64,000 nucleotides of DNA. It comes from Escherichia coli (GTDB lineage Bacteria > Pseudomonadota > Gammaproteobacteria > Enterobacterales > Enterobacteriaceae). Where the stretch lies: NCBI RefSeq assembly GCF_050920415.1, contig NZ_CP169309.1. One strand, written 5' to 3'. Of this stretch, positions 1,705 to 52,571 are shown in pieces; the stretch's first letter is position 1; each line of letters starts with the position of its first letter. Below the pieces are notes generated by a model. That model had not been told where the DNA came from and did no database searches. It worked only from the letters and a program-made list of their open reading frames with translations. Made by a program: the position numbers and the translations under genes.

Positions 1705-1812
1705 TGCCGGATGCGGTGCACCTGTAGGCCTGATAAGACGCATCAAGCGTCGCATCAGGCACTATGCTCAAATGCCGGATGCGGCGTGAACGCCTTATCC
1801 GGCCTACACACA
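1705..1812. repeat. REP/BIME cluster (repetitive extragenic palindromes)
   Basis: Repeated GCCGGATGCGG...CGCATCAGGC...CCTTATCCGGCCTAC motifs in alternating orientation between yjgA and mpl. Confidence 0.85.
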
Positions 1813-7957: not shown

Positions 7958-8062
7958 CGCCAGATAAGACACAACAGCGTCGCATCAGGCATCTCGCACA
8001 ACCGCCGGATGCGGCGTGAATGCCTTATCCGGCGGCCCACAAGTCGGCATCAGGCATTGATG
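7958..8062. repeat. REP/BIME cluster
   Basis: CGCATCAGGCAT...GCCGGATGCGGCGTGAATGCCTTATCCGGCGG...GGCATCAGGCATTGATGCC palindromic units between ytfR and ytfQ. Confidence 0.85.
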
Positions 8063-17092: not shown

Positions 17093-17257
17093 ATCAGTCG
17101 TCTGAATTTTAACCCTCTGGCGACTTTACAGTACCTTACGCTATACTAGCCACTGAAAATGCCGGTTCACTTTCTTCGAATCGGCTTTCAATGTGTATTT
17201 CACACAAATTAATCAACTTCCCCTTCCGAGGATCTGGCCTGAAAGGTCGGATAAGAT

Positions 17258-21727: not shown

Positions 21728-21916
21728 TTCTCCACCTCGTCTCTGTGAGCGGTGTTAACTTATTGTTTTACTTATACCCTATCGTTAAAGAATGCGCCAA
21801 CTGTGATAGTGTCATCATTTTCAAAGCGTTAAATTGTGGCATTCTTCACTGTTCTAAAAGTAAGAGGTTTATTCTCCCTTTTCTTTCGAATTCCCGATGA
21901 TAAAAGGATGTCCCTG

Positions 21917-39172: not shown

Positions 39173-40144
39173 ATGAAAATAAAAGTATCCGCTGGCATTA
39201 TCGGTGCTGTTCTTATGCTATCCGCAAGCCAGTCCTGGGCAGTAACATTAAAACTTAGCCATAATCAGGATAAATCTCATCCTGTTCATAAAGCGATGGA
39301 GTTCTTTGCGAAAAAGAGCAAAGAGTACTCTAACGGTGATATTACTATTCGTATTTATCCAAATGGAACATTGGGTACTCAACGAGAAACAATGGAGCTG
39401 ATTCGTTCTGGTGCTATTCCGCTGGTAAAAACCAATGCGGCGGAGATGGAAGCCTTCGAGAGTTCGTATAAAATATTTAGCCTGCCTTATTTGTTCCGCG
39501 ATCGTGATCATTATTATCAGGTCATGCAAGGCGATATCGGAAGGAAAATCCTCGACTCAACGAAAAGCAAAGGTTATTTCGGGCTGACTTTCTATGATGG
39601 AGGCGCCCGCAGTTTCTACGGTAATAAACCGGTACTGAAACCAGACGATCTGAAAGGCATGAAAGTCCGTGTCCAGCCAAGTCCTGGCGCAGTTGAAATG
39701 ATCAAAGTCATGGGCGGTAACCCGACGCCACTGGATTACGGCGAGCTGTATACGGCCTTACAGCAGGGCGTGGTCGATATGGCAGAAAACAGCGTGATGG
39801 CACTGACCACTATGCGTCACGGTGAAGTGGCAAAATCCTTTAGCCTTGATGAGCACACCATGGTGCCCGATGTGGTTCTGATGAGTAATGCTGCATTTGA
39901 TAAACTCAGCCCTGAAAATCAGGCAGTTATATTAAAAGCAGCGAAAGAATCGATGAGTTACATGAAGGAGTTATGGAGCGAGCAAGAGAAACAAGAATTT
40001 GCAAAACTGGATAAAATGGGCGTAAAAGTCTACCCGGTTGATAAAGCACCGTTTATCGAGAAAGTACAACCGATGTACGCAAACTTCGCTAAAGATAACC
40101 CTGCCCTTGCCCCAATGCTGGCTGATATTCAGGCGGCTAAGTAA
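39173..40144 (+). CDS. TRAP transporter periplasmic solute-binding protein (DctP-like)
   Basis: 323 aa ORF with signal peptide MKIKVSAGIIGAVLMLSASQSWA; last gene of the operon. Confidence 0.88.
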   Translation: MKIKVSAGIIGAVLMLSASQSWAVTLKLSHNQDKSHPVHKAMEFFAKKSKEYSNGDITIRIYPNGTLGTQRETMELIRSGAIPLVKTNAAEMEAFESSYKIFSLPYLFRDRDHYYQVMQGDIGRKILDSTKSKGYFGLTFYDGGARSFYGNKPVLKPDDLKGMKVRVQPSPGAVEMIKVMGGNPTPLDYGELYTALQQGVVDMAENSVMALTTMRHGEVAKSFSLDEHTMVPDVVLMSNAAFDKLSPENQAVILKAAKESMSYMKELWSEQEKQEFAKLDKMGVKVYPVDKAPFIEKVQPMYANFAKDNPALAPMLADIQAAK

Positions 40145-40255: not shown

Positions 40256-40717
<462 letters not shown>

Positions 40718-40746: not shown

Positions 40747-41293
<547 letters not shown>

Positions 41294-41299
41294 CAGAAA

Positions 41300-41713
<414 letters not shown>

Positions 41714-42022
41714 TTATTCAGCCTCCTGTCTGGGTCAGCCGAATCCCGGGGAGGCAAGGAACGTGTTAAAGGTCGGCTGAAAAATGACGCGTTATAGTAC
41801 TGACATACCCCGTTAAACTCAAGGCCAGCCGACAAATAAATCTCATCTTTCACCAAATCGTACTAACACGCTGATTTGAAGTTCATCACACTTCATCATG
41901 GTGTTTTTTTGAACAACTGCATCAGAAATGGTCACCATCAACTTCTTTATCATTGATTAAAATTAAATCAGAAGATCACCACAAGAGGAGAGCACACAAA
42001 GTCAGCCGTCGAGGAGGTATCT

Positions 42023-42298
42023 ATGTTCAGCCGTGTTTTAGCCCTTCTGGCTGTGCTTTTGCTAAGTGCAAATACATGGGCAGCCATTGAAATTAATAAC
42101 CACCAGGCCAGAAATATGGACGATGTGCAAAGCTTAGGCGTGATTTATATCAATCATAATTTCGCCACTGAAAGCGAAGCGCGTCAGGCATTAAATGAAG
42201 AGACAAATGCGCAGGGCGCAACGTACTACCACGTGATTCTGATGCGGGAACCGGGGAGTAACGGCAACATGCACGCCAGCGCGGATATTTATCGCTAG
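42023..42298 (+). CDS. yjfY: DUF1471 (YdgH/BhsA/McbA-family) small periplasmic protein
   Basis: 91 aa ORF with signal peptide MFSRVLALLAVLLLSANTWA; GAGGAGG Shine-Dalgarno. Confidence 0.9.
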   Translation: MFSRVLALLAVLLLSANTWAAIEINNHQARNMDDVQSLGVIYINHNFATESEARQALNEETNAQGATYYHVILMREPGSNGNMHASADIYR

Positions 42299-42338
42299 CA
42301 CCAGGTATAACCAACGAAACATTGCCATAGTTTGCTTT

Positions 42339-42363
42339 GCCCCCTTCTCAGGGGGCTTTTTTT
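42339..42363 (+). terminator. Rho-independent terminator of yjfY
   Basis: GCCCCC-TTCTCA-GGGGGC hairpin followed by TTTTTTT. Confidence 0.85.
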
Positions 42364-42426
42364 GAAAAACGGCTGCGGACTTAGACCAGTTATCTCCCGA
42401 AGAAGGAAATTTCCGCAGCGCGTGTT

Positions 42427-43113
42427 TTACTTCTGCCCGTAATAGGCGTTAGGACCGTGCTTACGCATGAAGTGTTTATTCATGAGATAGCTGTCGATGT
42501 GATTCAGTTGTGGGTTAATGCCGCGGGCAATCCACGCCATTTTCGCCACTTCTTCCATCACCACCGCGTTATGCACCGCATCGTGAGCATCTTTCCCCCA
42601 GGCGAACGGCCCGTGCTGATACACCACAATTCCCGGCGTATGCAGCGGCTCGGCGTCACCCAGCGTTTCGATAATCACTTTGCCTGTGTTTAGCTCGTAT
42701 TCCCCCTGCACTTCTTCTTCACTTAACCCACGCGTACACGGGATATCGCCAAAGAAGTAGTCAGCATGCGTGGTGCCTAATGCCGGGATCGCCAGCCCCG
42801 CTTGCGCCCATGCGGTGGCATGCGTGGAATGGGTATGGACAATGCCGCCAAGCGACGGATAACGACGGTAGAGTTCAAGATGCGTCGCAGTGTCGGAAGA
42901 CGGACGATACTCCCCTTCCACCACCTTGCCGCTAATATCAACCACCACCATATCGTCTGCTTTCATGGTTTCGTAGGCGACACCGCTGGGCTTGATCACC
43001 ACCAGCCCGCGTTCGCGGTCAATGGCGCTGACGTTACCCCAGGTAAAGGTCACCAGCCCGTAACGCGGCAGATCCATGTTGGCTTCAAATACCTGCTGTT
43101 TCAGCTTTTGCAT
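42427..43113 (-). CDS. ulaF: L-ribulose-5-phosphate 4-epimerase
   Basis: 228 aa class-II aldolase-fold [32 protein letters not shown]...; last gene of the ula operon. Confidence 0.95.
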
Positions 43114-43967
43114 TATGCCGCCTCCACCATGCCTGCTTTAGCCATGCGCGCTTTCACCCAATCACGCGCTTTCGCCACTTCTGCCGCCGGGTCTTCCGCC
43201 GTTTCGCTCCACATCTCAATCAGGTACGGCCCGCAATAGCCACTCTGTTTGAGCGTTTCAAAGCAACGTTCGAAATCCACCACACCCTCGCCAAACGGCA
43301 CGTTTTTGAAGACGCCTGGTTTAGTGTCTTTCACATGCACCGCGACGATATGCCCGATTCCGGCCTGCAATTCCATCTGCACGTCGTTGTCCCACGCCGA
43401 CAAGTTGCCGATATCCGGGTAGAGCTGGAACCACGGGTTGTTAAGATAGTGCGCGTAACCCAGCGCCTTGCTGATGGAGTTCATCAACGGGTAATCCATG
43501 ATCTCCATTGCCAGCGTCACCTGCGCGCGGCTCGCCATCTCAACGCTCTCTTTCAGGCCGTCACGGAAACGACGACGCGTTTCGTTATTGGCTTCCTGAT
43601 AGTAAACGTCGTAGCCCGCCAGTTGGATCACGCGAATACCGACATCCTGGGCGAACTGGATAGCTTTTCGCATAATCTCAAGCCCCTGCGCCCGCACTGC
43701 GTCATCTTCGCTGCCCAGCGGGAAACGACGATGAGCAGAAAGGCACATGGATGGTACGCGCACGCCGGTTTCAACAATCGCGTTCACCAGCGCCAGACGC
43801 TGCTCGCGGCTCCAGTCAAGGCGCGAGAGGCGATCGTCCGTTTCATCTACCGACATCTCGACAAAATCGAAGCCTAACGTTTTTGCCAGTTGCAGCCGTT
43901 CCAGCCAGCACTCCCCGGCGGGGAGCGCTTTTTCGTAGATGCCAAGCGGGATTTGTTTGGACAACAT
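43113..43967 (-). CDS. ulaE: L-ribulose-5-phosphate 3-epimerase
   Basis: 284 aa TIM-barrel [30 protein letters not shown]...; 1 nt overlap with ulaF. Confidence 0.95.
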
Positions 43968-43976
43968 ATCCGCTCC

Positions 43977-44627
43977 TTAGCCCCACAGTTCGGCGATGGA
44001 ACGTTTGAACTGACGCGCGGCTTCAACCGGAGAGGCGGCATCACGGATACTACGCCCAGCGATAAACACATGAATCGGAATGCCTTTGAACAGCGGCAGG
44101 TCTTCCAGCGCCAGGCCACCGGTGACGGTGACTTTGAAGCCCATATCGGAAAGACGTTTGATCGCGGTGATATCCGCTTCGCCCCACGCCACGCCTGCGG
44201 CCTGCGCGTCACGGCTGCGGTGATAAACCACCTGCTGGATACCTGCGTCGCGCCACTGCTGCGCCTGTTCCCAGGTCCAGTAACCGGTCAGTTCGATCTG
44301 CACGTCGCCATTAAACTCTTTTGCCACGTCCAGCGCGCCTTTGGCGGTGTTGATATCTGCACAGCAAATTACGGTCACCCAGTCAGCGTTGGCTTCAAAG
44401 CACATACGAGAAAGGATTTTTCCGGCATCGGCGATTTTGGCGTCTGCCAGCACGATTTTGTGCGGATAAAGCGCTTTCAGATCGCGAACCGCACGCACAC
44501 CTTCGCCCACGCACAGAATGGTGCCCACTTCGATAATGTCGACTTCTTCGGCAATCAGGCGAGTAGTTTCGTAGGCGCTAGCCATAGTCTGGTTGTCCAG
44601 CGCGACTTGCAACATCGGTAATGACAT
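43977..44627 (-). CDS. ulaD: 3-keto-L-gulonate-6-phosphate decarboxylase
   Basis: ORF track starts at 44780; ATG 44625-44627 gives [15 protein letters not shown]... (216 aa). Confidence 0.95.
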
Positions 44628-44640
44628 TTTCAATTCCTTC

Positions 44641-45105
44641 TTAAGCAGCCGCGTTGGTGCGGTCAATGAGATCCAGGATTTCCTGCTCGGTACGGCAGGC
44701 GCGTAAACGGTCGAAATTCTCTTCATCTTCAAACAGGTTGACGATCTGCATGATGCCCACTTCCTGATGCGTGTTGGCATCGACCGCCGCCATCGTGATG
44801 AGGATATCCACCGGGTCGTTATCTTCGTGGTTGAACTCCAGCGGCTTTTTCAGCGTCACCAGCGCAAAACCGGTTTTCTTAACGCCCTCTTCCGGGCGAC
44901 CATGCGGCATTGCCAGGCCCGGTGCGAGCACAAAGTACGGACCGTGCTGTTCAACCGCATCCAGAATCGCCTGGTAGTAACGCGGCTCTACCACATCTGC
45001 CGCCACCAGCAGGTCAACGCCGATTTTCACTGCGTCCTGCCATGTCTCAGCTTCAGCCTGCAGACGGATAGATTTATTCTCCGCCAGCGAATCACGTAAT
45101 TTCAT
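44641..45105 (-). CDS. ulaC: Ascorbate-specific PTS enzyme IIA
   Basis: 154 aa [32 protein letters not shown]... Confidence 0.95.
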
Positions 45106-45114
45106 AGGGCGCCC

Positions 45115-45420
45115 TTACTTCACGTCCTGCGGGAAATGTTCTTTGATCACTTCCAGCAGTTTCGGGCCAAAGTCAGCAGGAGAGAGCATGTTGCGCACGC
45201 CAACGACATATTTGTTGCCGGTCACGGTGATCTCGCCCGCGATGTGCGTAGAAGCGATGATGATATCCGCGCCGCTCAACTCGCTTTTGTATTCACCAAC
45301 CGCGCAGCTGTTTACCGTATGGTCGATGTTCGACTGGGTTAAAAACTGGTCCACTTTCATTTTCATGATCATGGAACTGCCTTGTCCGTTACCACACACA
45401 GCCAGAATACGTACGGTCAT
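45115..45420 (-). CDS. ulaB: Ascorbate-specific PTS enzyme IIB
   Basis: ATG 45418-45420 gives [19 protein letters not shown]... (101 aa) with the CGNG phosphocysteine motif. Confidence 0.95.
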
Positions 45421-45435
45421 AATCAAAACTCCTTA

Positions 45436-47187
<1,752 letters not shown>

Positions 47188-48252
47188 ATGAGTAAAGTGA
47201 AAAGTATCACCCGTGAATCCTGGATCCTGAGCACTTTCCCGGAGTGGGGTAGCTGGCTGAATGAAGAAATTGAACAAGAACAGGTAGCTCCTGGCACATT
47301 CGCGATGTGGTGGCTAGGCTGTACCGGGATCTGGCTGAAATCTGAAGGTGGCACCAACGTTTGCGTCGATTTCTGGTGTGGTACTGGCAAACAAAGTCAC
47401 GGTAACCCACTAATGAAACAGGGTCACCAGATGCAGCGCATGGCTGGCGTGAAAAAACTGCAACCGAACCTGCGTACCACCCCATTTGTTCTTGATCCGT
47501 TTGCGATTCGCCAGATCGACGCGGTACTGGCAACTCACGATCACAACGATCATATCGACGTCAACGTCGCTGCTGCCGTGATGCAGAACTGCGCTGATGA
47601 CGTGCCATTTATCGGGCCGAAAACCTGCGTGGATTTGTGGATTGGCTGGGGTGTGCCGAAAGAACGTTGCATCGTGGTCAAACCGGGCGATGTCGTTAAA
47701 GTGAAAGACATTGAAATTCATGCCCTTGACGCGTTTGACCGTACTGCACTGATCACTTTGCCTGCCGATCAAAAAGCGGCTGGCGTACTGCCAGACGGCA
47801 TGGACGATCGCGCGGTAAACTACCTGTTCAAAACGCCGGGCGGTACCCTGTATCACAGTGGCGATTCCCACTACTCTAACTACTATGCGAAGCACGGTAA
47901 CGAGCATCAGATCGACGTGGCATTAGGTTCATACGGTGAAAACCCACGTGGTATCACCGACAAAATGACCAGTGCTGATATCCTGCGTATGGCAGAAGCG
48001 CTGAATACAAAAGTGGTTATCCCGTTCCACCATGATATCTGGTCAAACTTCCAGGCCGATCCGCAAGAGATCCGCGTACTGTGGGAGATGAAAAAAGATC
48101 GCCTGAAGTATGGCTTCAAGCCGTTTATCTGGCAGGTCGGTGGCAAATTTACCTGGCCGCTGGATAAAGACAACTTCGAGTACCACTATCCACGCGGTTT
48201 TGACGATTGCTTCACCATTGAACCGGATCTGCCGTTCAAGTCGTTCCTGTAA
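47188..48252 (+). CDS. ulaG: L-ascorbate-6-phosphate lactonase (metallo-beta-lactamase fold)
   Basis: ATG 47188 gives [21 protein letters not shown]... (354 aa) with HDHNDH metal-binding motif. Confidence 0.95.
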
Positions 48253-48359
48253 TCTGTCGTTTATACCGGATGGCGTGGAGAAGTTCGCGCTATCCGGCGT
48301 AGTATTTCCTGGCTATTTCAAATATCATCTAAAAAAATCAAATTTTATCGGAATAGCTC

Positions 48360-49115
48360 ATGACTGAAGCACAAAGACATCAAATTCTCCTGGAAATGCT
48401 CGCACAATTGGGCTTTGTGACCGTTGAGAAAGTCGTTGAGCGTCTGGGAATTTCGCCTGCTACCGCTCGACGCGATATCAATAAACTTGACGAAAGCGGC
48501 AAACTGAAAAAAGTGCGCAATGGCGCAGAAGCCATTACCCAGCAGCGCCCACGCTGGACGCCGATGAATCTGCATCAGGCGCAGAACCATGATGAAAAAG
48601 TACGTATCGCTAAAGCAGCCTCGCAGCTGGTTAATCCGGGCGAAAGCGTCGTCATCAACTGCGGTTCCACCGCGTTTCTGCTTGGGCGGGAAATGTGTGG
48701 CAAGCCAGTGCAAATCATTACTAATTATCTACCGCTGGCGAATTACCTGATCGATCAGGAGCATGACAGCGTGATTATCATGGGCGGCCAATACAACAAA
48801 AGCCAGTCCATCACCTTAAGTCCACAGGGCAGCGAAAACAGTCTCTATGCCGGGCACTGGATGTTTACCAGCGGCAAAGGACTGACCGCAGAAGGGTTGT
48901 ATAAAACCGATATGCTGACGGCAATGGCAGAGCAGAAGATGTTGAGCGTGGTAGGGAAACTGGTGGTACTGGTTGATAGCAGTAAGATCGGCGAACGTGC
49001 GGGGATGCTCTTTAGTCGTTCAGATCAAATCGATATGCTGATCACCGGCAAAAATGCTAACCCGGAAATCCTGCAACAACTGGAAGCGCAAGGGGTCAGC
49101 ATTCTGCGTGTTTAA
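48360..49115 (+). CDS. ulaR: DeoR-family repressor of the ula regulon
   Basis: 251 aa [46 protein letters not shown] (HTH) with a DeoR C-terminal sugar-phosphate-binding domain. Confidence 0.95.
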
Positions 49116-49861
49116 AGATGCTGGCGGAAAAATGTCACGGCGGTCTCTAACGCCTCGGGCGTAATGCGGTGACGCACGCCTGGCTGCCATGAACAGGTTA
49201 GCTGTTTATCCCGTCCCACCTCGCTTAAGGCCTGCTGCAAACGTAGTGATTCGTCGGCGGGGACGACATCATCGTCAAGGCCATGCCATAAGAGCAGAGG
49301 TCTGTTTCCCAACTCTTCCAGGTGGTTTGTCGCTTCCCACTCTGCCAGTGGCGCGATAATGTTATTAAATTCGTTCTGCTGTCCTGTCGTTTCAGATATC
49401 AGCGGTGGAAACAGTGAACGGGCGAGTGATGTAAAATAGCCCGATCCCATCATGCTGGCGGTACATTTCACCGTGGGGTAGCGAGCGGTAATTCCCAGAG
49501 CCGTCATCGCGCCCATCGATGCACCACCGATTGCCAGACGGTCATCAAGCAGCCAGTTTTCTTCAGCTACTGCCGCACGTAAAGTAATGAATTCCTGCAT
49601 ACTTTGTAGCAAGATTTGCCAAAATTGATTTAACCGCCGCGCTGCGTCGCCCCTAAAACGGCTACCGTGATCGGGCGCATCCGGCATGATCACCCGCAAA
49701 CCAGCCTGCGCCAGCGCAACGGCAAAATAGCTATACACCAGACTGGACGAAGTAAAGCCGTGATAAAAAATCACGCACGGTAACGGGGTATCTTTTTGCC
49801 CGACAGGATAAGCATGAAGAACGGGAATATCTGCCAGCACGCGCGAGTCTATTTCAATCAT
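49112..49861 (-). CDS. yjfP: Alpha/beta-hydrolase esterase YjfP
   Basis: 249 aa ORF with nucleophile-elbow GASMG; convergent 4 nt overlap with ulaR. Confidence 0.93.
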
Positions 49862-50042
49862 CTGTCTCTCCTTTTTGTCTGGTATGACATGAAGAAATCC
49901 TTAGCACAAGTTTCTGCTGGCGGTATTAGTTCATAATGTTGAGATGTGGGTTACGCTTTCATCACGTTTTCATTCGAAAATCGCGTACCAGGTAACAATT
50001 CGGGAACATTCCCCCAAAGTTAAATTAATAAGGCACTACACT

Positions 50043-50372
50043 ATGGTTAGCAGGAAACGTAATAGCGTTATTTACCGGTTTGCCAGTTTATTATTGGTGT
50101 TGATGTTAAGTGCCTGTAGCGCACTGCAAGGTACGCCACAGCCAGCACCGCCAGTAACGGACCATCCGCAAGAGATTCGCCGCGACCAGACGCAAGGGTT
50201 ACAGCGAATAGGTAGCGTAAGCACGATGGTTCGGGGTTCTCCGGATGACGCATTAGCAGAAATCAGAGCGAAAGCTGTCGCTGCAAAAGCTGATTATTAC
50301 GTTGTCGTCATGGTGGACGAAACCATCGTGACAGGACAGTGGTATTCACAAGCCATTTTGTACCGTAAATAA
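50043..50372 (+). CDS. bsmA: Biofilm stress and motility protein A (DUF1471 lipoprotein)
   Basis: ORF track starts at 49944; ATG 50043 gives MVSRKRNSVIYRFASLLLVLMLSACSA... (109 aa) with a lipobox LSAC. Confidence 0.9.
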   Translation: MVSRKRNSVIYRFASLLLVLMLSACSALQGTPQPAPPVTDHPQEIRRDQTQGLQRIGSVSTMVRGSPDDALAEIRAKAVAAKADYYVVVMVDETIVTGQWYSQAILYRK

Positions 50373-50520
50373 ATCAGACAACTTACATAGTCAGCTTTAC
50401 ATTGCTTTGCGTCCCTATGCGTTTACCTGTGCACAATAAATTACCAGCTGGAAGCTCGGGCGTTTATTACCGCGATGGAATGCCCTGCAACATGTGGGGA
50501 AACGAAAAATGGAGCTGACG

Positions 50521-50796
50521 ATGAAACAATTACTTGCCTCACCCTCGCTGCAATTAGTGACTTATCCTGCGAGCACCACGGCACAGTCTGCAGAATTCGC
50601 CAGTGCTGACTGCGTAACGGGCCTGAATGAAATAGGTCAGATCTCGGTTAGCAATATTTCAGGGGATCCGCAGGACGTGGAACGTATCGTGGCGTTAAAG
50701 GCCGATGAACAAGGTGCATCATGGTACCGCATTATTACCATGTACGAAGACCAGCAGCCTGATAACTGGCGCGTACAGGCGATCCTGTATGCGTGA
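50521..50796 (+). CDS. yjfN: DUF1471 small periplasmic protein YjfN
   Basis: GGAG Shine-Dalgarno then ATG 50521 gives MKQLLASPSLQLVTYPASTTAQSA... (91 aa); C-terminus resembles yjfY and bsmA. Confidence 0.88.
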   Translation: MKQLLASPSLQLVTYPASTTAQSAEFASADCVTGLNEIGQISVSNISGDPQDVERIVALKADEQGASWYRIITMYEDQQPDNWRVQAILYA

Positions 50797-50820
50797 GTGT
50801 CATCTACAGCAAATGAACAA

Positions 50821-50856
50821 TGCCGGATGCGGCACCTGTGCCTTATCCGGCCAACA
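50821..50856. repeat. REP element
   Basis: TGCCGGATGCGGCACCTGTGCCTTATCCGGCCAAC palindromic unit after yjfN. Confidence 0.8.
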
Positions 50857-50945
50857 GTTCCTGAAATTTCATTGTGTTAGTTGATAACACGTAATGCTGC
50901 TGTTGCCATTATAAGACGCGCTAGCATCACATCTGGCTGACTCGT

Positions 50946-52571
50946 TTATAAACATACTCCCCCCGTCGCCCGCAGCAATAAATCATTCTGGATCTGCTCT
51001 GACAACCGCACGCCGCCGCGCGTATCAAACATCATCTGACACCACGCCTGCGCCATTGGCGGAGAGGCATATTTCAACATTTGCGCGCCGCAACCCAGCA
51101 GGAATAGCTGACGAGTAATCTCTCGCCCCATTTCTTCAGCTGGCTTACGCAGTTGCTGCTGCAAACGACGAACCGCGCGATCAAAATAGCGATCCTGTCC
51201 TTTCACTTCCACAAATGCTTCTGTCAGCAAATCGTATACCCCAGCCTGCTTATTGAGAACGCGCAGCACATCGAGGCACATAATATTGCCAGAACCTTCC
51301 CAGATGCTGTTCACTGGCATTTCCCGATAAAGTCGCGGTAGTTCGCTCTCTTCGCAATAGCCAATACCGCCCAGCACCTCCATCGCTTCAGCCACAAACG
51401 GAATGCCACGTTTGCAGATAACAAATTTCGCCGCAGGCGTAAATAAGCGCGCCCACAGGGCTTCTTTGGCATCGGCACGCCGATCCCACGCTCGCGCAAG
51501 ACGAAACAGCAACGCTGTTTGCCCTTCAAGTTGGAGCGCCATGCGGCTTAAGACATGACGCATCAAAGGCTGTTGGATCAATGGATTACCAAAAACATGG
51601 CGTTGATGGGCATGATAAATCGCCAGCGAAAATGCACGGCGCATCATGGCATGGCTACCCAGGGCGCAATCAAAACGCGTCATCCCACCCATTTTCAGGA
51701 TCAGACGAACTCCTTCCCCTTCCTGCCCCAACAACCAGCCAATGGCATCCTGAAACTCCACTTCGCAGCTGGCGTTAGAGCGATTACCCAGCTTATCTTT
51801 CAGCCGCTCGAGGCGAATCGCGTTGCGTTGCCCGTCAGGCAAAAAGCGCGGCACAAAAAAGCAGGACAAACCGCCCGTAGTCTGCGCCAGCACCAGATGC
51901 GCATCGCTTTGCGGCACCGAGAAAAACCATTTATGCCCCACCAGCCGATAAGAGCCATCGTCCAGACGCTCTGCGCGGGTAGTGTTGCTCATCACATCGG
52001 AACCGCCCTGCTTTTCCGTCATGCCCATGCCAATCAACAAACCGCGTTTTTGCCCACCTGGCAATAAGTGGGAATCGTAGCGATCGCTCAACAGCGGCGT
52101 GGTCCAGTCCTGAAACGGCGCGGGTAACATCTGTAACAGCAATGGCGTGGCGGCAAAGGTCATGGTTATCGGACATAACGACCCTGCCTCAACCTGTGCG
52201 TGCAACATAAAACGCGCCGCGCGCGCCACAAATGCGCCGGAGCGAGCGTCTTCTTCCCAGGCAAGATTGTGCACCCGATTGGTACATAGCGCCTGCATCA
52301 GCAAGTGCCAGGCGGGGTGAAAACGCACATCGTCCAGACGGCGTCCTTGCGCATCGTAGCGCAATAATTCAGGCGGATTCACATTCGCCAGCCGCCCCAG
52401 TTCAAGAGATTCAGCCGTTCCTAACTGCTGACCAATACTGGCGAGAAAATCGCTATCCCAGCCAGCACCTTCACGCGTTACCGCTTCGCAGAGCGCGCCA
52501 TCAGACAGGTATAAGTTGCTGTTATTTAATGGTATAGGTTGATTAAAAACGGTGTGAGTTTGCCAGTGCAC
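50946..52571 (-). CDS. aidB: Acyl-CoA-dehydrogenase-like adaptive-response protein AidB
   Basis: ACAD-fold ORF; start taken at GTG 52569-52571 (..HWQTHTVFNQPIPLNN.., 541 aa) to match the length I remember; an in-frame ATG at 52584-52586 would add 5 residues. Confidence 0.9.
   Translation of the reverse strand: MHWQTHTVFNQPIPLNNSNLYLSDGALCEAVTREGAGWDSDFLASIGQQLGTAESLELGRLANVNPPELLRYDAQGRRLDDVRFHPAWHLLMQALCTNRVHNLAWEEDARSGAFVARAARFMLHAQVEAGSLCPITMTFAATPLLLQMLPAPFQDWTTPLLSDRYDSHLLPGGQKRGLLIGMGMTEKQGGSDVMSNTTRAERLDDGSYRLVGHKWFFSVPQSDAHLVLAQTTGGLSCFFVPRFLPDGQRNAIRLERLKDKLGNRSNASCEVEFQDAIGWLLGQEGEGVRLILKMGGMTRFDCALGSHAMMRRAFSLAIYHAHQRHVFGNPLIQQPLMRHVLSRMALQLEGQTALLFRLARAWDRRADAKEALWARLFTPAAKFVICKRGIPFVAEAMEVLGGIGYCEESELPRLYREMPVNSIWEGSGNIMCLDVLRVLNKQAGVYDLLTEAFVEVKGQDRYFDRAVRRLQQQLRKPAEEMGREITRQLFLLGCGAQMLKYASPPMAQAWCQMMFDTRGGVRLSEQIQNDLLLRATGGVCL

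Follow-up and report, generated by a model that had tools for sequence, protein, structure and literature searches.

Three linked DUF1471 genes around the ula block of Escherichia coli are probably ancient, diverged paralogs in a conserved gene order

Introduction

The DUF1471 (YhcN, or BhsA/McbA) family has been divided into subfamilies that include YjfY, YjfO (BsmA), and YjfN, with 20-40% identity between subfamilies (Eletsky 2014, PMC4092069). In that study, the adjacency of yjfN and yjfO was cited as consistent with expansion of the family by gene duplication, lateral transfer was given as one possible route of expansion, and yhcN was noted to adjoin a ycfR-like gene in Salmonella. YjfN has been described as a 'suicide activator' of the proteases DegP and DegQ (Kim et al. 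2018, as cited in PMC12096828, bioRxiv 10.1101/2024.12.25.630354), and the published feature on which DegP activation depends is a hydrophobic residue at the C-terminus (Kim et al. 2018, via PMC12096828). YjfN-dependent degradation of CsgA by DegP/DegQ in vitro has also been reported. Here we analyze how yjfY, bsmA (yjfO), and yjfN are related and arranged in a 64,000-nucleotide stretch of an Escherichia coli genome (contig NZ_CP169309.1), which we call the window and in which the three genes lie on either side of the ula genes.

Some regulation of these genes is known. The yjfN gene belongs to the CpxR iModulon (PMC7657598) and is listed in the Cpx regulon as CpxAR-regulated (PMC5428311), and bsmA is transcribed from a promoter recognized by sigma-S (PMC4447067). 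In Klebsiella, the yjfY ortholog is one of several DUF1471 genes for which induction by H2O2 and by gut inflammation has been reported (PMC11057644). A preliminary description of the window called the three products small envelope-stress proteins, which the literature bears out for YjfN (Cpx, DegP) and for BsmA (sigma-S, peroxide, biofilm); YjfY is uncharacterized. Since a six-gene DUF1471 knockout in Klebsiella gave no phenotype (PMC11057644), separate hypotheses for each paralog may aid in the design of better assays.

The genes, the family, the structures of solved relatives, the YjfN-DegP mechanism, and the adjacency of yjfN and yjfO are already in the literature. What we add is that, with the ula block set aside, yjfY joins the pair as a third linked gene of the family, that a loop-length character splits the family, and that the C-terminal residue of YjfN and a CpxR-like box upstream of its gene are kept across genera. 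As a discovery this carries little weight; it has a modest value as evolutionary bookkeeping, with ula as a variable block in an old three-gene DUF1471 cluster, and bsmA/yjfN make a tidy case of paralogs that diverge in anchoring, regulation, and C-terminal function.

Results and discussion

The three genes and their family

We put at about 70% the probability that yjfY, bsmA, and yjfN are ancient, diverged DUF1471 paralogs in a conserved backbone of genes, with bsmA and yjfN being tandem duplicates that pre-date the radiation of the Enterobacteriaceae. The clustering of three family genes beside ula, as put forward in the preliminary description, is correct and non-random, and its proposal that they arose by local duplication is partly right.

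The window is oriented in reverse of K-12. Based on the annotation of RefSeq E. coli NZ_CP169399.1, which is 100% identical over 41500-51500 (locus offset 39999), the gene order is priB, rpsF (minus strand), yjfY (plus), ulaFEDCBA (minus), ulaG and ulaR (plus), yjfP (minus), bsmA and yjfN (plus), and aidB (minus). The coding sequences of yjfY (42023-42298, 91 aa), bsmA (50043-50372, 109 aa), and yjfN (50521-50796, 91 aa, annotated in RefSeq as 'protease activator YjfN') are all on the plus strand and have the same coordinates as in the preliminary description, whose gene identities, sizes, and interleaving with ula and yjfP also agree with the annotation. The ula regulon (42427-49115; ulaFEDCBA on the minus strand, ulaG and ulaR on the plus strand) forms a 6.7-kb block between yjfY and yjfP (49112-49861, minus strand), and yjfP, an esterase gene that is not a member of the family, lies between ulaR and bsmA and is divergent from bsmA. 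All three open reading frames (ORFs) are present, each product is one residue off its K-12 counterpart, and a six-frame scan of the 64-kb window with the family hidden Markov model found exactly three DUF1471 ORFs.

All three proteins exceed the gathering score of 27 bits for Pfam PF07338 (YdgH_BhsA-like, formerly DUF1471; 55 model positions), and the whole model is covered in each of them: YjfY scores 69.4 bits (residues 35-91, nt 42125-42295), BsmA 56.9 bits (residues 53-108, nt 50199-50366), and YjfN 63.3 bits (residues 35-90, nt 50623-50790). The matches are to the C-terminal ~56 residues (E from 2e-15 to 3e-19), so the earlier statement that the proteins have related C-terminal halves is right at the family level. 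The NCBIfam BsmA equivalog model NF011433 (curated cut-off of 100 bits) is passed by BsmA at 152.7 bits and failed by YjfN (50.4 bits) and YjfY (32.2 bits), as it should be by paralogs; with the NCBIfam YhcN model, YjfY scores 49.8 bits. The best structural matches of the AlphaFold2 model of YjfY (pLDDT 76.6) are the solved DUF1471 domains 4evu and 2m2j, and in the models the domain has the same kind of mixed alpha+beta fold as the family members with solved structures (SrfN, YahO, YdgH-I, YdgH-III). Like the family at large, all three proteins are ~90-110 aa long and combine an export signal at the N-terminus with an alpha+beta domain at the C-terminus; the enterobacterial restriction and the low identity between subfamilies fit as well, and there is no difference at the family level.

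The family is small. Searching 1.8 billion proteins with a family profile gave 486 clusters (50% identity) at E<=0.001, and from these we retrieved 150 cluster representatives. Orthologs and loci were collected from 80 species in about 15 genera, comprising all 80 BsmA loci out of 100,044 species genomes. The family is confined to the Enterobacteriaceae and close relatives, as all of these loci are enterobacterial by record title except for one titled Chryseobacterium sp. 18061 (locus L046). That locus has the full order rpsF-yjfY-ula-yjfP-bsmA-yjfN-aidB, and its gene order and protein identities are close to those of 'Citrobacter sp. 18056' (L047), so the assembly is probably mislabeled or contaminated.

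Sequence relationships among the three proteins

The case for bsmA and yjfN as duplicates begins with their proteins, which align in BLASTP at 30% identity (E=4e-8). In a BLASTP comparison of the ten K-12 family genes (rclB, yahO, ybiJ, mcbA, bhsA, ydgH, yhcN, yjfN, bsmA, and yjfY), the best paralog of BsmA is YjfN with 34 bits, followed by YjfY with 22 bits, and among BsmA-type cluster representatives YjfN is the second-best subfamily in 10/12. Profile comparison with hhalign gave scores of 86-90 for BsmA-YjfN, counting both directions, and 63-64 for BsmA-YhcN. Over the domain, BsmA and YjfN are on average 34% identical, and BsmA reaches no higher mean with any other subfamily. An unrooted neighbor-joining tree (Kimura-corrected distances, 101 domains, 62 columns, 200 bootstraps) recovered a BsmA+YjfN clade in 105/200 bootstraps (52%).

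Several results weigh against this reading, and most of them involve the unlinked YhcN. The best E. coli paralog of YjfN is YhcN with 42 bits, ahead of BsmA with 34 bits; YhcN is the second-best subfamily of 11/12 YjfN-type representatives; the hhalign score of YjfN-YhcN (89-90) is as high as or above that of YjfN-BsmA (90 vs 86); and YjfN scores slightly higher with the NCBIfam YhcN model than with the BsmA model (51.6 vs 50.4 bits). The bootstrap support for the BsmA+YjfN clade is low, and the domain has only about 60 residues, too few to resolve the deep branches. In short, BsmA points to YjfN, YjfN stands equally close to BsmA and to YhcN, and YjfY points to neither of its neighbors. The high reciprocal scores led us to consider YjfN and YhcN as sister groups, a grouping that we rejected: it was found in 0/200 bootstraps, and the two differ in the loop described below (20 vs 17 residues).

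YjfY is the most difficult member to place. It aligns with BsmA in BLASTP at 27% identity (E=6e-5), in part within the hydrophobic leader, and gives no BLASTP alignment with YjfN. Pairwise alignment had been proposed in the preliminary description as the way to refute a relationship, namely by showing no significant similarity outside the signal peptide. Such similarity is present when the whole family is considered, and it is nearly absent for the YjfY-YjfN pair taken alone. YjfY is 16-25% identical to every subfamily and about equidistant from them, with 21% to both BsmA and YjfN. Its hhalign scores range from 26 to 52 over all subfamilies, with 36 for BsmA, and its YjfY-type representatives have YdgH-I or YhcN as their second-best subfamily. 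Its best E. coli matches in BLASTP are YhcN (39 bits) and YdgH-I (38 bits), with only 25 bits for BsmA, so YjfY has no specific affinity to the products of its neighbors, which also weighs against including it with them. The nearest solved relative of YjfY is 2JNA (SrfN). A grouping of YjfY with SrfN/2JNA was considered as a possibility: the partial 2JNA sequence is nearer to YhcN-type proteins than to YjfY, and the SrfN subfamily is absent from the 150 retrieved representatives.

These results bear on the explanation offered in the preliminary description, that one series of local duplications from a single ancestral DUF1471 gene produced all three genes and that yjfY has diverged beyond the reach of sequence methods. 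Sequence relatedness speaks against it for yjfY, since YjfY is no nearer to BsmA and YjfN than to other subfamilies, its best matches lie elsewhere (YhcN, YdgH-I, and SrfN/2JNA), and a clade of all three proteins appeared in only 13/200 bootstraps (6.5%). For bsmA and yjfN, local duplication is supported by the similarity and tree results given above and by loop length. What favors a common local origin for yjfY as well is its position, which we discuss below, and the loop.

The loop in question is the stretch between two conserved alanines of the domain. It is 20 residues long in all 30 sampled YjfY, BsmA, and YjfN domains, 17 residues long in all 41 BhsA, McbA, YbiJ, YahO, YhcN, and RclB domains, and 19-20 residues long in nearly all YdgH domains. 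By this character, which is independent of the alignment, the three linked genes are on one side of a split in the family, and the six short-loop subfamilies are on the other. The tree has no root, and the long loop is also found in the product of ydgH, which is not linked to the cluster; loop length is therefore no proof of a clade specific to this locus, a point that weighs against the single series. In addition, the bipartition by loop length was found in only 2/200 bootstraps, and the long loop common to YjfY, BsmA, and YjfN could be the ancestral state given that there is no root; both points reduce what the loop can contribute to our reading.

At the nucleotide level, a repeat search and a three-way DNA alignment found no similarity among yjfY, bsmA, and yjfN beyond chance, which rules out recent duplication or gene conversion among the three genes. 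In the Escherichia proteins, the YjfN leader (LLASPSLQL) bears some likeness to the BsmA lipobox region (LSACSALQG), and this likeness likewise has no support at the DNA level.

Conservation of the gene order

With few exceptions among the 80 species, the order rpsF-yjfY-[ula]-yjfP-bsmA-yjfN-aidB is kept, in genera that comprise Escherichia, Citrobacter, Salmonella, Enterobacter, Klebsiella, Raoultella, Kluyvera, Leclercia, and others, including Lelliottia, Trabulsiella, Buttiauxella, and Franconibacter. All three family genes were seen in 68/80 loci, and in most of the others yjfY lies beyond the retrieved DNA. The position of yjfP is kept in 78/80 loci. The bsmA and yjfN genes are 148 bp apart on the plus strand in the window, and they are neighbors in 79/80 loci as well as in a distant one (L089). 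The three genes have no DNA similarity to one another, and they are arranged alike throughout the Enterobacteriaceae genera, so any duplication is old and predates the radiation of these genera.

The ula block, in contrast to this backbone, is variable. It is missing in 16/80 species, where yjfY and yjfP meet at a clean junction of 68-173 bp (1.4 kb in two of them), so that yjfY is ~1 kb from bsmA and the three family genes fall within ~2 kb. The presence of ula differs among close relatives, as between two loci of Citrobacter amalonaticus (L033 and L036) and between Kluyvera ascorbata and K. cryocrescens, and in Kluyvera georgiana a 24-residue remnant of the UlaR C-terminus remains beside yjfP (the UlaR remnant locus is listed as L083). 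Based on the differences between close relatives and the remnant, at least some of the absences are deletions; the polarity of ula gain or loss is otherwise something we infer. The ula genes are thus a variable 6.7-kb block inside an older and tighter yjfY-yjfP-bsmA-yjfN cluster.

Position is, with loop length, one of the two points that connect yjfY to the other two genes. Three of the ten E. coli DUF1471 genes lie within 8.5 kb, for which 500,000 random placements give a chance probability of P=0.0011, and the three are on the same strand. Both facts, and the ~2 kb span in species without ula, favor the single local series, as does the existence of other local DUF1471 clusters; the presence between yjfY and bsmA of yjfP, which is not of the family and has the opposite orientation, does not. 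Taking position and loop together with the sequence results above, we regard a single series giving rise to all three genes as possible, with odds somewhat short of even.

The same positional evidence bears on the opposite explanation, that the genes arrived independently, by translocation or by horizontal transfer within the Enterobacteriaceae, and that their proximity is due to chance or to selection for chromosomal context. The pairwise identities of 21-34% are inside the general range between subfamilies (16-48%), YjfN is as near to the unlinked YhcN as to BsmA, and lateral transfer has been listed as a possible route (Eletsky 2014), all of which favor independent arrival. It would not explain clustering that has a chance probability of about 0.001, the placement of bsmA and yjfN 148 bp apart and in the same orientation wherever the two genes occur together (79 loci), the consistent choice of YjfN as the nearest relative of BsmA, or the common loop length, and there is no sign of a mobile element at the locus. 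We therefore consider independent arrival to be unlikely.

Linked family members within a few kb are also found elsewhere, in ybiJ-mcbA of E. coli and in yhcN beside a ycfR-like gene of Salmonella (PMC4092069), consistent with local duplication. In E. coli, ybiJ and mcbA are 4.1 kb apart (L003:7666-12057; K-12 837665-842056), with ybiI, ybiX, and fiu between them. BhsA, McbA, and YbiJ are the mutually closest subfamilies (42-48% identity, hhalign 118-145), and the ybiJ and mcbA products, with 44% identity and hhalign scores of 118-121, are among them; this is a second and younger local DUF1471 cluster. Compared with clusters of this type, the yjf members are much more diverged (21-34%), have three modes of export or anchoring, and are interrupted by yjfP and ula.

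Duplication history

More distant lineages give some indication of which copy came first. In locus L089, where AidB is 71% identical, a bsmA-like gene, a yjfN-like gene, and aidB are in the same order. In L088 (AidB 53%, YjfP 48%) there are yjfP, one gene for a BsmA-type lipoprotein, and aidB, with no yjfN, and an Erwinia metagenome-assembled genome (L082) has bsmA alone at the site. Since more distant lineages carry bsmA alone at the site, the BsmA-like lipoprotein form is possibly older. As a point on the other side, bsmA alone in L082 and L088 could be the result of yjfN loss instead of a state from before the duplication.

Our reading of an ancient, diverged cluster can be put as the following series of events, the order of which we infer. 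An old backbone of rpsF-yjfY-yjfP-bsmA-yjfN-aidB would have existed with a variable ula block between yjfY and yjfP. Within it, bsmA and yjfN would most likely be tandem duplicates made before the Enterobacteriaceae radiated, with the bsmA-like lipoprotein form possibly the older copy and yjfN derived from it. The yjfY gene would possibly come from an even older local duplication, judging by position and loop length and not by sequence relatedness. The copies have since specialized: YjfY as a soluble periplasmic protein; BsmA as a lipoprotein with a Pro-rich tether and a sigma-S promoter; and YjfN as a soluble protein that has a putative CpxR-type promoter to itself and that, according to the published biochemistry, binds and activates DegP/DegQ by way of its hydrophobic C-terminal residue.

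Single members of the family are dispensable in some lineages, as indicated by two broken genes. In the E. albertii type strain NBRC 107761, bsmA (L014:8002-8331) has two in-frame stops, at codons 43 and 100, and in Franconibacter helveticus, yjfY (L079:8736-8960) has lost the domain after YINHN.

Features of YjfN

The preliminary description called all three proteins secreted. We judged export signals from hydropathy and motifs in 67-78 orthologs per protein and found one in each: a Sec leader in YjfY, a lipobox in BsmA, and a leader with an AxA-type site in YjfN that is weak in Escherichia. The YjfN leader comprises residues 1-21 and ends in A-T-A before QSAEF. In Escherichia it has the sequence MKQLLASPSLQLVTYPAS(A/T)TA (nt 50521-50583) and is only weakly hydrophobic: the Kyte-Doolittle maximum over 9 residues is 1.19, against medians of 2.07 in other genera (leader MKRSLALTSLLLSAGLVSTTA) and 3.17 for YjfY. 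Mature YjfN is highly conserved all the same. Judging from these values, the efficiency of YjfN export may be reduced in E. coli. A longer leader beginning at an in-frame GTG (50494) or ATG (50509) was considered and rejected, as the 'ATGGAG' at the latter position supplies the conserved GGAG of the annotated ATG. This Shine-Dalgarno GGAG (50511-50514, plus strand) is 6 nt before the yjfN ATG, in a block that is 85-95% conserved across genera.

YjfN ends in ILYA, and all of the 78 orthologs end in either A (70) or V (8). The YjfN of the window is 90/91 identical to K-12 YjfN, and it has retained the C-terminal Ala that reportedly engages DegP. The YjfN-like protein of L089 ends in Arg, which suggests that the hydrophobic C-terminus was gained after the duplication. 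The C-terminal residue is K, Q, R, or P in BsmA and R, K, or Q in YjfY, so, with no hydrophobic C-terminus in either, the DegP mechanism should not extend to them.

In the spacer between bsmA and yjfN, ~110-125 nt upstream of the yjfN start, there is a CpxR-like direct repeat, TTTAC-N5-TTTGC (50396-50410, plus strand; complement of GTAAA-N5-GTAAA). The 64-kb window has no second match, and a single one is not significant alone, with at least one match in 33/100 shuffles. The box is at the same position in 60/73 distinct spacers, where both pentamers are conserved and the N5 is variable. From this pattern, 50396-50410 is a candidate site for CpxR binding; the lack of a CpxR ChIP-exo peak at the yjfN box (PMC7657598) counts against a CpxR-type promoter for yjfN. 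A terminator scan of the bsmA-yjfN spacer detected no intrinsic terminator after bsmA, so read-through from bsmA into yjfN is possible. Simple scans found no sigma-70 promoters around yjfY, bsmA, or yjfN, and our statements about promoters therefore rest on conservation and the literature.

Features of BsmA

BsmA has a lipobox, L-S-A-C, at residues 22-25 (nt 50106-50117), followed by a Pro-rich linker (residues ~26-45) ahead of the DUF1471 domain. Since residue +2 is Ser, the +2 rule predicts that the protein is sorted to the outer membrane.

The described protein that BsmA most calls to mind in its layout is RcsF (PDB 2y1b), the outer membrane lipoprotein sensor of the Rcs envelope-stress system, since BsmA likewise has a lipobox, a disordered linker, and, as modeled, an RcsF-like fold. 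The two are 16% identical, with no detectable sequence homology, and RcsF has two disulfide bonds, while mature BsmA has no Cys beyond the lipidated one. We do not place BsmA in the RcsF family, and nothing ties it to outer membrane protein threading, IgaA, or Rcs signaling. An extended scenario can be drawn in which BsmA would be a functional analog of RcsF, with the Pro-rich linker tethering an envelope-monitoring domain or threading it through a porin, and in which the cluster would record how a tethered, sensor-like lipoprotein (bsmA, which stands alone in the most distant loci) was converted step by step into a soluble, Cpx-induced DegP activator (yjfN): the gene would have been duplicated, and one copy would have lost its lipobox and afterward acquired the hydrophobic C-terminus. 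We find this scenario unlikely.

Features of YjfY

YjfY has a Sec signal peptide with A-x-A cleavage at about residue 20-21 and, with the median given above, a strongly hydrophobic leader. By these features it is predicted to be a Sec-exported, soluble periplasmic protein. Its motif NMDDV.SLGV.YINH (N31-H45) is invariant across genera.

Upstream of yjfY, at ~-118 to -88 from the start, is a conserved block of ~30 nt (TTTTTTGAACAAC..CATCAGAAATGGTC; 41905-41935, plus strand). Its columns are at least 95% conserved among 68 distinct Enterobacteriaceae upstream sequences, and the rest of the spacer is variable. We presume that the block is a promoter or a regulator site of yjfY. A marbox or OxyR-type site was a poor fit on comparison by eye. 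With the invariant motif and the conserved upstream element, YjfY is a well-defined uncharacterized target. The rpsF-proximal part of the divergent rpsF-yjfY spacer contains an Rfam RpsF leader (RF02893, 110 bits; 41693-41777, minus strand).

Downstream, between the convergent yjfY and ulaF, the terminator scan found a hairpin resembling an intrinsic terminator (GCCCCC..GGGGGC; 42339-42366, plus strand), with a 7-bp stem that has 6 GC pairs and is followed by TTTTTTT. The T-run and GAA of the 41905-41935 block resemble the tail of this terminator (direct repeat D2).

Other observations in the region

The divergence of this locus from K-12 is mosaic. The ula/yjfP segment (42427-49861) and aidB (50946-52571) have only 92.7-95.8% nucleotide identity to K-12, and bsmA, rpsF, priB, and the yjfP-bsmA spacer (40979-41695 and 49862-50372) have 99.4-99.7%, which suggests that the ula/yjfP/aidB segments carry alleles that were imported by recombination or are deeply split. 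The region 41500-51500 matches 5425/5426 complete E. coli genomes; only 1/5425 has at least 99% identity, and 2959 are at 90-95%.

Only 59% of the spacer between yjfN and aidB (50797-50945) can be aligned with K-12, and the BLASTN alignment is interrupted at this spacer. At ~50819-50852 it has a GC-rich palindromic sequence that resembles a repetitive extragenic palindromic (REP) element, and in Enterobacter-type loci this gap has an insertion of ~2.3 kb.

On the far side of rpsF, a gene for a TRAP transporter substrate-binding protein (coding sequence end at ~39999-40144) is beside rplI (40256-40705), where K-12 has yjfZ and ytfA. The region varies among strains and lies a short way outside the three-gene cluster. 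Other Rfam matches in the window above the gathering score are at 1727-1804 (minus strand), 7958-8034 (minus), 17139-17196 (plus), and 21794-21916 (minus); these are two copies of naRNA4, STnc450, and the small RNA ES239, and they have no relation to the yjf genes.

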